Source: Patescibacteria group bacterium (lineage in GTDB: Bacteria; Patescibacteriota; Minisyncoccia; Moranbacterales; UBA2206). From it: DNA of 64,000 nt. The notes below the pieces were generated by a model, which saw nothing but the letters and a program-made list of their open reading frames with translations, made no database searches and was not told the origin of the DNA. The stretch's first letter is position 1; every line of letters begins with the position of its first letter. Below, in pieces: positions 8,917-9,569 of the stretch. The translations under genes were made by a program, and so were the position numbers. The stretch spans positions 256,586-320,585 of the forward strand of contig JAKLIG010000001.1 of the NCBI GenBank assembly GCA_022709735.1, written 5' to 3'.

Positions 8917-9081
8917 AAAATAAATTCTTGATTTTTAAATTTTTAATTTTATAAATAAATCTTAATTCTTAATTTTTAAATATTAGAAATTAGAATTTAT
9001 TTAAAAATTACAAAATTAAACATTATAAAATTCTTTTAACAATACTAGCAAGAATCGATAAATATAGCAATTTTTGAAAAT

Positions 9082-9518
9082 AAAAAAACAACCCAATGAG
9101 ATGCAGTGCACCTCATTGGGTTTCAGGGGGATGTGTTAAGCGCAGAAGCACTCACAAGGAAATAAAAATCGGAAATTTGAGTTGCATAAAAGCCCTCCTA
9201 GCTGTCCAACGGCGTTGCCGTTGACAGCGTGCCTCCGCTTTTGCCAATTCACCGCGCCATAGCATCCTCATGCTAGGCGCGCAACACTGCAGTGCCTCGT
9301 CTCGTTGGGCTACCGGGTGTTATTATAGTGAGTGGCAAAAGCGGTGTTAAAGTTACCCACGGTGGTAATTTCGATTGCCAACAAAATAAAAATTCCATTC
9401 ATAGGCATACCTCATAAAAAACAAAAACGGTTAATTTTTCCCTTGCCCGAGAACCATTCCCAGGCAAGGTTGGTCGAGTGAACATCAAGGAAAGACCGCC
9501 GAAACTTTTATCACCTCC
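9082..9518 (-). ncRNA. unclassified GC-rich structured RNA candidate ending in an intrinsic terminator
   Basis: 440 nt with no ORF and much higher G+C than the flanks. Several strong hairpins are present (e.g. gctgtccaacggcgttgccgttgacagc and ccttgcctgggaatggttctcgggcaagg). On the minus strand it ends with the stem aacccaatgag/ctcattgggtt followed by a T-run (9069-9114 on the plus strand). Confidence 0.3.
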
Positions 9519-9569
9519 TTTCGATTTTTAAAGGGTTTAAAGAACGACGTAAATTAATAATAACTTTTT

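Follow-up and report, generated by a model that had tools for sequence, protein, structure and literature searches.

Type I toxin mRNAs, such as those of hok/sok, ldr/rdl ("long direct repeats") and aapA/isoA, are units of 350-700 nt with their own sigma-70 promoter and an intrinsic terminator. Dual-function small RNAs (sRNAs) include RNAIII/hld of Staphylococcus, SR1/SR1P of Bacillus and SgrS/SgrT. To our knowledge, almost nothing is known about the small RNAs and micro-proteins of the candidate phyla radiation (CPR)/Patescibacteria, whose genomes are small and poorly understood. Here we describe an element in the yidD-obg spacer of a Candidatus Moranbacteria (CPR/Patescibacteria), within a 64,000-nt stretch of contig JAKLIG010000001.1 (hereafter the window). 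The element looks like a self-contained, strongly structured and terminator-ended transcription unit of ~468 nt on the minus strand. It also looks like this genome's own version of a yidD-obg expression cassette that is patchy in the Moranbacteria clade. We tentatively favor the explanation that it is a micro-protein mRNA which is stable and gated at translation, and which belongs to a hypervariable family of cassettes.

The element shares several features with type I toxin mRNAs. These are a strongly folded predicted mRNA with a 5′-3′ closing helix and hairpins that sequester Shine-Dalgarno (SD) sequences, a short (30-35 aa) candidate open reading frame (ORF), hydrophobic in its N-terminal half, in the window and in the related contig L022, tandem copies in another relative (L021), and a fixed intergenic site at which the unit is present in some genomes and absent from others. 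It differs in that the cassettes have no conserved antisense promoter or antitoxin RNA, several of the cassette peptides are polar, there are several SD-led ORFs per unit, and the cassettes match no Pfam/NCBIfam toxin family and no Rfam family. Like dual-function sRNAs, it is a multi-hairpin RNA of a few hundred nt with long-range closing helices, its own promoter and terminator, and a tiny SD-led ORF, but it has no sequence or Rfam relation to them and is an orphan rather than genus-conserved. The element fits no known family, and Rfam, Pfam and NCBIfam have no match to the cassettes.

Anatomy of the transcription unit

The yidD-obg spacer of the window is 653 nt long, and the gene order on the minus strand is yidD, spacer, obg. 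The transcription signals of the element are:

9557-9584, minus: sigma-70-type promoter, TTGACA (9584-9579), 16 nt, TATTAT (9562-9557), 11/12 consensus matches
9083-9550, minus: predicted transcript of ~468 nt, from promoter and terminator positions and fold statistics
9083-9122, minus: intrinsic terminator from a terminator scan (hairpin 9090-9122), 15-bp stem, 3-nt loop, one G then seven U (GUUUUUUU)
9322-9350, minus: internal promoter-like site, TTAACA-17-TATAAT, 11/12 matches, a consensus match only

The transcript start was placed ~7 nt past the -10 hexamer and the 3′ end in the U tract. The -35 hexamer overlaps the final codons of yidD. The RNA strand of the element is the minus strand. 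On the plus strand, A-C mismatches would replace the G-U pairs of the hairpin at 9469-9441 and of the terminator, the promoter lies on the same strand as the terminator, and that terminator is the only one, with none found on the plus strand of the element. No plus-strand promoter-like site (at least 9/12 matches) occurs within 9085-9550. The internal site could give rise to a 3′ sub-transcript of ~230 nt. A first-pass annotation, made from the letters alone, had recognized the minus-strand terminator, and the hairpin at 9122-9090 bears it out. It had placed the segment at 9060-9545; the location stands, and the real unit is slightly larger, with its promoter at 9584-9557 and its transcript at ~9550-9083.

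The same annotation described this segment as G+C-rich and hairpin-dense, and both hold, well past what chance would give. The G+C content is 46% over 9085-9530 (maximum 61%), vs. a window mean of 35.1% and 11-18% in the remaining spacer, and the element folds with a z-score of -7.9. G+C-rich islands are said to mark structural RNA genes in A+T-rich genomes, a screening principle that reportedly goes back to Klein, Misulovin and Eddy in 2002. In line with it, non-coding G+C peaks that attain 58% over 150 nt occur at just two places in the 64 kb, namely in the element and in the RNase P RNA. The principle predicts a structured RNA but names no family, and the micro-ORF payloads of relatives are G+C-enriched as well. 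Besides classical non-coding RNAs (ncRNAs), a micro-gene cassette can also give rise to a G+C island in an A+T-rich CPR genome. The RNase P RNA itself lies elsewhere, as first annotated; Rfam 15 finds it at 58497-58835 on the minus strand. The description of the segment as ORF-free is correct for ORFs of at least 50 aa, of which there are none on either strand, and not for micro-ORFs, which are present at a site that hosts SD-led micro-ORF cassettes.

Predicted fold

The minus strand folds at -171.8 kcal/mol (z = -7.9 vs. 100 dinucleotide shuffles) and the plus strand at -147.6 kcal/mol (z = -4.9, dinucleotide shuffles). In a separate control the element reached z = -6.6 and the RNase P RNA -5.7, and the z-scores of 38 background windows of 456 nt had a mean of -0.86 and an sd of 1.5, with a single outlying window at 21900. 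The helices listed here are those of the minimum-free-energy structure with its pair probabilities, and are a prediction only:

9510-9534, minus: 5′ hairpin, anti-SD CCUUU (9534-9530) with AAAGG (9521-9517)
9516-9499 with 9172-9157, minus: P1, long-range helix of 15 bp that encloses P2 to P8, pair probability 0.82-0.84
9157-9516, minus: closed multi-hairpin core
9441-9469, minus: P3, hairpin of 13 bp with two G-U (CCUUGCCUGGGAA / UUCUCGGGCAAGG), mean pair probability 0.96
9348-9414, minus: P5, long irregular hairpin, pair probability 0.92-0.99
9235-9344, minus: P6 domain, perfect 12-bp helix (CCGCUUUUGCCA / UGGCAAAAGCGG), 100% complementary, pair probability 0.95-0.99
9322-9282 and 9281-9253, minus: P6a and P6b, inside the P6 helix, the latter with a GAGG tetraloop
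9201-9228, minus: P7, hairpin of 12 bp with one bulged G (GCUGUCAACGGC-AAC-GCCGUUGGACAGC), pair probability 0.88-0.97

A small hairpin, P9, precedes the terminator. The predicted fold has features expected of a type I toxin mRNA, namely the 5′-3′ pairing of P1 (~0.83), the anti-SD hairpin at 9534-9517, and the SD and AUG of a candidate micro-ORF (micro-ORF a, below) inside P5.

The outlier among the background windows (21900-22356, minus, z = -7.6) is mostly the terminator AAGGGGCAGAG...CUCUGCCCCUUUUU after a polysaccharide deacetylase gene. It holds additional hairpins in the 3′ coding end of that gene.

An insertion site that varies among relatives

The obg neighborhoods of 13 related genomes/contigs were compared, at Obg identities of 69-83%; the Obg of the window is 83% identical to that of the Moranbacteria metagenome-assembled genome contig PCRW01000031. 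The order corA-yidD-obg is conserved among the nine related lineages. The spacers and their contents are:

L001/L011, L012/L013, L014, L015, L016 and L023: short spacers of 28-211 nt, no insert
L003 (outgroup): spacer of ~400 nt, a different insert with a 63-aa Cys-rich ORF
L019, L017, L021 and L022: long inserts, spacers of 506, 558, 771 and 909 nt, respectively
L017 payload: AAAGGAGGUGAU, 5 nt, UUG-GAA-GUU-UAG; then GUGAGGU, 7 nt, AUG (40 aa)
L019 payload: 3-codon mini-ORF; then GGAGGAG ahead of a 25-aa ORF
L021 payload: cassette 1 with 27-aa and 30-aa ORFs; a second cassette in tandem
L022 payload: one ORF of 35 aa with a hydrophobic N-terminal half and a basic tail; two further ORFs of 21 aa and 5 aa

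The insert is thus missing in 5/9 related lineages and present in four (L017, L019, L021, L022), and the interiors of these four are unrelated to one another and to the window. Comparison with orthologous obg-yidD spacers had been proposed with the first annotation as the test of conservation; for the interior of the element, conservation fails. In a neighbor-joining tree of Obg the cassette is patchy. The window, L022 and the clade formed by L021, L017 and L019 have it; the sister of the window (L001/L011) and three other branches do not. Judged by sequence comparison, the yidD-obg insert is a fast-turnover accessory locus and not a housekeeping RNA gene.

The limits of the insert can be read from a block that carries the promoter of obg and lies outside the element:

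9038-9071, minus: obg promoter block in the flank, ATTGCTATATTT..TCTTGCTAGTATTGTT, TTGCTA-17-TAGTAT

In the insert-free L014 the yidD stop is followed by 14 nt and then ATTGCTATATTT..TTGTTAGTATTATT, and the same block lies 3′ of the terminator in the window and 3′ of the cassette terminator in L019. Since the block is shared with L014, it delimits the insert of the window on the right (the insert spans ~9590-9074), and obg retains its own promoter. The element is therefore flanked by the yidD stop on one side and, as seen from L014 and L019, by the conserved promoter of obg (ATTGCTATATTT..TAGTATT) on the other. At the yidD end, the DNA coding for the C-terminal tail of YidD (..EERKELTKK; window 9570-9600, minus) is homologous to the non-coding promoter region of the L022 cassette (AAAAGCGTTGACAAAAAAAAC); the 3′ end of yidD has thus been remodeled by the insertion.

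The cassettes are homologous at their ends. A TTGACA-16/17-TAxxAT promoter was called on the sense strand in L017, in both L021 cassettes and in L022. In L019 a TTGACA with a weaker -10 (AATATA/TATATA) is visible in the sequence, although the consensus scan did not call a promoter there. Six cassette promoters were aligned. The window promoter region (9591-9543) aligns to the L022 cassette promoter with a local score of 34 (shuffles 21.0 ± 2.5, maximum 29). L017 and L019 have a leader of ~190 nt in common (score 187). Its 3′ limit falls exactly on AAAGGAGGUG, and the homology between the two resumes only at the terminator. The 5′ leader and SD of the window match L017/L019 at 33/41 positions, including the upstream ACC(N)CUUU anti-SD (window 9534-9510), with a marginal score of 28 vs. 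21 ± 2.5 and shuffle maxima of 29 and 38.

At the 3′ end, cassette 1 of L021 and the cassette of L022 have a module in common (score 58). It consists of GGAGG(G/A)CAAAAUG, a short ORF and a terminator, whose stem carries two compensatory pair changes. The counterpart in the window is AGGAGGGC-UUUU-AUGCA, followed by the terminator CCCAAUGAGG...UCUCAUUGGG; this is a likeness of design and motif, of the CCCC(A/G)UGAG type. The window terminator stem is alike to the relatives' cassette terminators CCCCAUGAGG, CCCCAUAGGG, CCCCGUGA and CCCGUGAG, but the likeness is weak, as a profile of six terminator 3′ halves finds the relatives and not the window copy at E ≤ 1. The end motifs of the cassettes were found nowhere else in the window or in the relatives' loci, and the relatives' cassette motifs were not found in IMG/VR.

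Every strong SD in the relatives' cassettes has an AUG or UUG 5-11 nt downstream. The micro-ORFs (5-40 aa) alternate with G+C-rich hairpins, and every cassette is rich in hairpins, with a predicted fold more stable than that of its shuffles (z -2.2 to -5.6).

A perfect DnaA-box-like sequence, TTATCCACA, lies 10-15 nt upstream of the cassette -35 in L017 (1956-1964), L021 (732-740) and L022 (717-725), with TTATCCATA in L019. It is absent from the window cassette. The 63-aa Cys-rich ORF of L003 (2640-2831; CxC...CC..C...C.H) has its own SD and terminator at the yidD-obg site. In L001 (2935-2990) and in L011, which is identical in sequence, a G+C-rich hairpin of ~18 bp (GCCCGCCTCGCGTCGACG...CGAGTCGAGGCGGG) stands ~10 nt upstream of the obg start, a position at which the window has A+T-rich sequence. 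The dnaB-dus spacer is a second variable small-gene site. In L012 (5103-5761) and L013 (1454-2112) it spans 660 nt and carries a 67-aa SD-led ORF (uAGGAGacacugccAUG), and in the window it is only 165 nt.

Shine-Dalgarno sequences and small reading frames

Two candidate micro-ORFs of the element are led by SD motifs:

9310-9408, minus: candidate micro-ORF a from the ORF listing, MPMNGIFILLAIEITTVGNFNTAFATHYNNTR, 32 aa, or 30 aa from AUG 9402
9152-9199, minus: 3′ module with micro-ORF b, MQLKFPIFISL, 11 aa; SD AGGAGGG (9199-9193), 5 nt, AUG 9187, stop 9154-9152

In micro-ORF a, AUG 9402 lies 7 nt past a GAGG, and AUG 9408 is an alternative start. The predicted P5 buries both this GAGG (9413-9410) and the AUGs. 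The N-terminal half of the peptide is hydrophobic; its best 15-residue Kyte-Doolittle window is 1.89, vs. 2.03 for the 35-aa ORF of L022 and 1.82 for the AapA1 reference, yet it contains Glu and Thr. The coding part of micro-ORF b is the 3′ strand of P1, and its SD is exposed in the predicted fold. The spacings AGGAGGG-5 nt-AUG and GAGG-7 nt-AUG fit the SD-start pattern of the relatives, which supports a coding reading.

The strongest SD is the 13-nt GAAAGGAGGUGAU (9522-9510), which occurs once in the window. All 13 nt are complementary to the canonical 16S 3′ tail, though the tail of the host itself may differ. No start codon stands behind it, the start and stop of a mini-ORF having been lost relative to L017 and L019, and 9510-9534 may be a remnant of a 5′ expression platform. 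The minus strand of the element carries seven GAGG, vs. 1.07 ± 1.0 expected (0/1000 shuffles reach 7), and no CCUC. In the predicted fold the GAGG contexts are mixed (stems, one loop and junctions), and other 450-nt windows reach six GAGG. The enrichment was considered as proof of a sponge RNA; these last two observations weaken it.

The genes of the window seldom use SDs. GGAG, GAGG or AGGA occurs within 20 nt upstream in 6/51 long ORFs, about as expected by chance. Because SDs are rare in ordinary window genes, the SD motifs of the element are not background. An anti-SD motif was detected in only 48% of Parcubacteria 16S rRNAs (PMC9297842). Strong SDs in a genome whose ordinary genes lack them give access to the way in which such lineages partition translation initiation.

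Ordinary genes of the window have A-rich leaders without an SD (e.g., those with starts at 8916, 9830 and 10908). Strong SDs occur in the window only at the polysaccharide deacetylase gene (start 22894, minus, GAGGAGGuaauuAUG) and at small intergenic ORFs.

Searches for homologs and known families

An Rfam 15 scan of the whole window (4227 families, gathering thresholds) returned the RNase P RNA only. At E ≤ 10, matches in 8900-9700 were noise, with no tmRNA (transfer-messenger RNA), SRP (signal recognition particle), 6S, intron or riboswitch match. The best sub-threshold match was VrrA (25.6 bits, gathering score 50), on the terminator and its A+T-rich flank. The large ornate RNAs in Rfam 15 (OLE, GOLLD, ROOL, raiA, HEARO) gave no covariance-model match either, so that none of the families that the first-pass annotation had put forward for an Rfam scan (tmRNA, SRP, 6S, large ornate RNAs) was matched and its label of "unassigned structured RNA" still describes the element with respect to Rfam and ARAGORN. 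ARAGORN found no tRNA or tmRNA in the window; in the region of the element it found none at 80%, and at 60% it made a spurious permuted call on the plus strand.

Searches with the micro-ORFs were equally negative. None of them matched Pfam or NCBIfam, and when the longest stop-free frame, of 55 aa, was compared by phmmer with 1.84 billion proteins, the only matches were to low-complexity repeats. No homolog of the interior was found by blastn/nhmmer in the relatives' loci (~150 kb), in phage and plasmid records, in IMG/VR (two DNA patterns; six degenerate 24-nt probes) or in JGI (Joint Genome Institute) metagenome contigs (twelve degenerate 24-nt probes). The probes were degenerate 24-mers from frame translations with X at stop codons, and GTDB genomes were searched with Obg only. 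The only other copies of the element are 100% identical and from the same organism, in the assemblies ERZ795054 (European Nucleotide Archive, ENA) and SRR5007146 (Logan).

Several candidates were rejected. A group II intron domain 5, a 16S 3′-end fragment and a T-box were compared by eye with P7 and the plus strand; the bulge side and the loop type do not fit, and these candidates are further countered by the G-U pairs that favor the minus strand and by the lack of an Rfam match. The element is not a miniature inverted-repeat transposable element (MITE) or other repeat, as it is single-copy in the window and its terminal inverted repeats are only an A-run and a T-run. A likeness of a window peptide to an ORF of L017 (AIE...ATH(Y/F)) was dropped at p = 0.03-0.04.

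What the element may be

If the element is a translationally gated micro-protein mRNA, as we tentatively suppose, the cassette family would have a conserved 5′ platform, made of a sigma-70 promoter and a leader that ends in a strong SD held by an anti-SD hairpin. It would have a conserved 3′ end as well, an SD-AUG mini-ORF followed by a related intrinsic terminator. The payload between them would be exchanged wholesale from genome to genome, swapped rather than diverged. In relatives, this payload consists of up to three SD-led micro-ORFs (at least one, each of 5-40 aa), set apart by hairpins rich in G+C. In the window, it would be a rosette of five strong hairpins closed by the 5′-3′ helix, carrying a hydrophobic micro-ORF of 30-32 aa whose SD and AUG are shut in P5, and an 11-aa micro-ORF with an ideal exposed SD. 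The hairpins and the 5′-3′ pairing would stabilize the RNA and hold the main ORF silent until the structure opens, and translation of the 3′ mini-ORF would melt P1. The logic of such a design would be akin to that of type I toxin mRNAs and dual-function sRNAs. What the sequence itself shows is the anatomy and strand of the element, its lack of a match to a known family, the polymorphism of the insertion and the homologous cassette ends; transcription, translation and gating are predicted features, as is any biological role.

A number of observations weigh against this explanation. The gene callers of the source assemblies called no gene in the spacer. The SD of micro-ORF a is only 4 nt, and the start codon that follows the strongest SD (9522-9510) in relatives has been lost here, which could mean decay. 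The micro-ORF peptides of different cassettes show no significant similarity to one another and match no family. Peptide length in the 3′ module varies (5, 11 and 30 aa); should the module matter, its role would lie in being translated or in the RNA, and not in the product. A classical type I antitoxin would call for an antisense promoter, but none was found in the window and none convincing in L017, L019 and L021, and L022 has one unconserved candidate (TTGATA-17-TACAAT, 10/12). Since no antisense promoter is conserved, we do not file the element as a type I toxin-antitoxin system. Finally, the interior has no homolog in the collections searched that could lend support by ORF conservation or base-pair covariation.

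The element may instead be a pure ncRNA, with a trans-acting regulatory or a protein- or ribosome-binding payload and incidental micro-ORFs, which we regard as possible but rather doubtful. Its seven GAGG/GGAGG motifs in 468 nt could then be functional sites, e.g., for the 16S anti-SD or for an RNA-binding protein. The G+C island, a fold z-score equal to that of the RNase P RNA, the perfect helices of 12-13 bp in a closed rosette, the excess of GAGG over the 1.07 expected with no CCUC on the same strand, the 13 nt that are perfectly complementary to the canonical 16S tail and lead no ORF, and the lack of any called gene, protein-family or protein-library match all agree with an ncRNA. But the GAGG motifs stand in mixed contexts without a repeated presentation and six are attained in other 450-nt windows, the homologous SDs of relatives precede start codons, the interior is without conservation or covariation, and part of the Parcubacteria lacks the anti-SD altogether (PMC9297842). 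It is unlikely, in our judgment, that the element is a decaying or neutral remnant, either of a once-coding cassette or of foreign DNA taken up by a spacer prone to recombination, perhaps transcribed but functionless. That would explain an orphan without homologs in JGI metagenome contigs, IMG/VR, phage/plasmid records and ~150 kb of relatives, the loss of the mini-ORF start and stop behind the 5′ SD relative to L017 and L019, and a sister lineage (L001/L011) without the insert. Neutral decay would break helices, however, and five helices of 12-15 bp are intact, with G-U wobbles as the sole non-Watson-Crick pairs. Both promoter and terminator come close to consensus, two independent assemblies have identical copies, and G+C is maintained 11 points above the genome average.

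Two other explanations are less probable still. A cis-regulatory leader, in which translation of the 3′ mini-ORF controls the terminator and hence read-through into obg, is suggested by the SD-AUG mini-ORF just upstream of the terminator in the window, L021 cassette 1 and L022, by the L022 stop codon that abuts the terminator stem and the L021 cassette 1 ORF that runs through it, and by a terminator ~170 nt upstream of obg. We consider it very unlikely, because obg has its own conserved promoter (9070-9042) downstream of the terminator, shared with the insert-free L014, 5/9 related lineages lack the cassette, the stop codon in the window lies 30 nt ahead of the terminator stem, and ~330 nt of structure would be superfluous for such a role. 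That the element is a divergent tmRNA, SRP RNA or 6S RNA, as first suspected, is scarcely credible, although the size of ~450 nt and the terminator fit. Likeness to tmRNA (RF00023 and clan) extends to its size class, G+C richness in an A+T-rich genome, the terminator and a loosely similar 5′ 25 nt, where GGAGGUGAU...GUUUCGGCGG recalls the 5′ acceptor and D-loop segment. The tmRNA-like 5′ end of the first reading (GGAGGUGAU...GUUUCGG) reads as an SD (AAAGGAGGUGAU), and the AAAGGAGGUG to which it aligns, at a marginal score, stands 6-11 nt before start codons in relatives. The defining tmRNA features that were tested all speak against it, from the acceptor stem and the T-arm to the tag ORF and the score of the covariance model. 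The 5′ end reads GGA and not GGG, position 3 being A and not the G of G3-U70, and the strand has no CCUC to pair with GGAGGUG. As the first-pass annotation had itself remarked, there is no T-arm (a GGUUCGA-type T-loop, by inspection), no CCA 3′ end and no tag-like ORF ending in (L/V/F)AA on the element strand (the three frames end in FCA*, LRA* and ISL*). ARAGORN gives nothing for the element at default or 80% settings, no tmRNA, SRP or 6S model matches 8900-9700 even at E ≤ 10, and the closest relatives lack the element at this site. An inviting but mistaken tmRNA call is thereby removed from the annotation of this genome.

The comparison points to the yidD-obg spacer as a fixed intergenic site at which short, structured, strongly expressed-looking units are gained, lost and swapped among close relatives, a behavior typical of conflict or host-interaction genes. 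A bolder version, which we think improbable, is that the spacer is, in this Moranbacteria clade, a hot spot of undescribed, fast-swapping cassettes with conserved ends and interchangeable toxin-like micro-protein and/or structured-RNA payloads, dependent on SDs in genomes that make little use of them elsewhere. These would form a CPR-specific conflict or host-interaction system, comparable to type I toxin-antitoxin loci but without an antisense antitoxin, and the window would hold its most RNA-rich member.

Neighboring genes and other small loci

The genes around the spacer are:

9570-9830, minus: yidD (PF01809, E 5e-26)
7954-8916, minus: obg, the directly downstream neighbor of the spacer
9898-10809, strand opposite to yidD: corA, upstream of yidD

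Two other small SD-led genes were seen on the minus strand of the window. The non-coding gap at 5983-6345 contains a small ORF at 6270-6060 (GGGAGGuuaucuagcAUG, 69 aa, MKSYLKKMAGLTYSIHH...). Just upstream of the RNase P RNA, a small gene at 59283-58960 has a TTGACA-18-TAGAGT promoter and the SD AGGAGGuaucuAUG; it encodes a basic protein of 60 aa (MIKRRLIRLTKKNIARLDD...) and is followed by a hairpin with a T-run.

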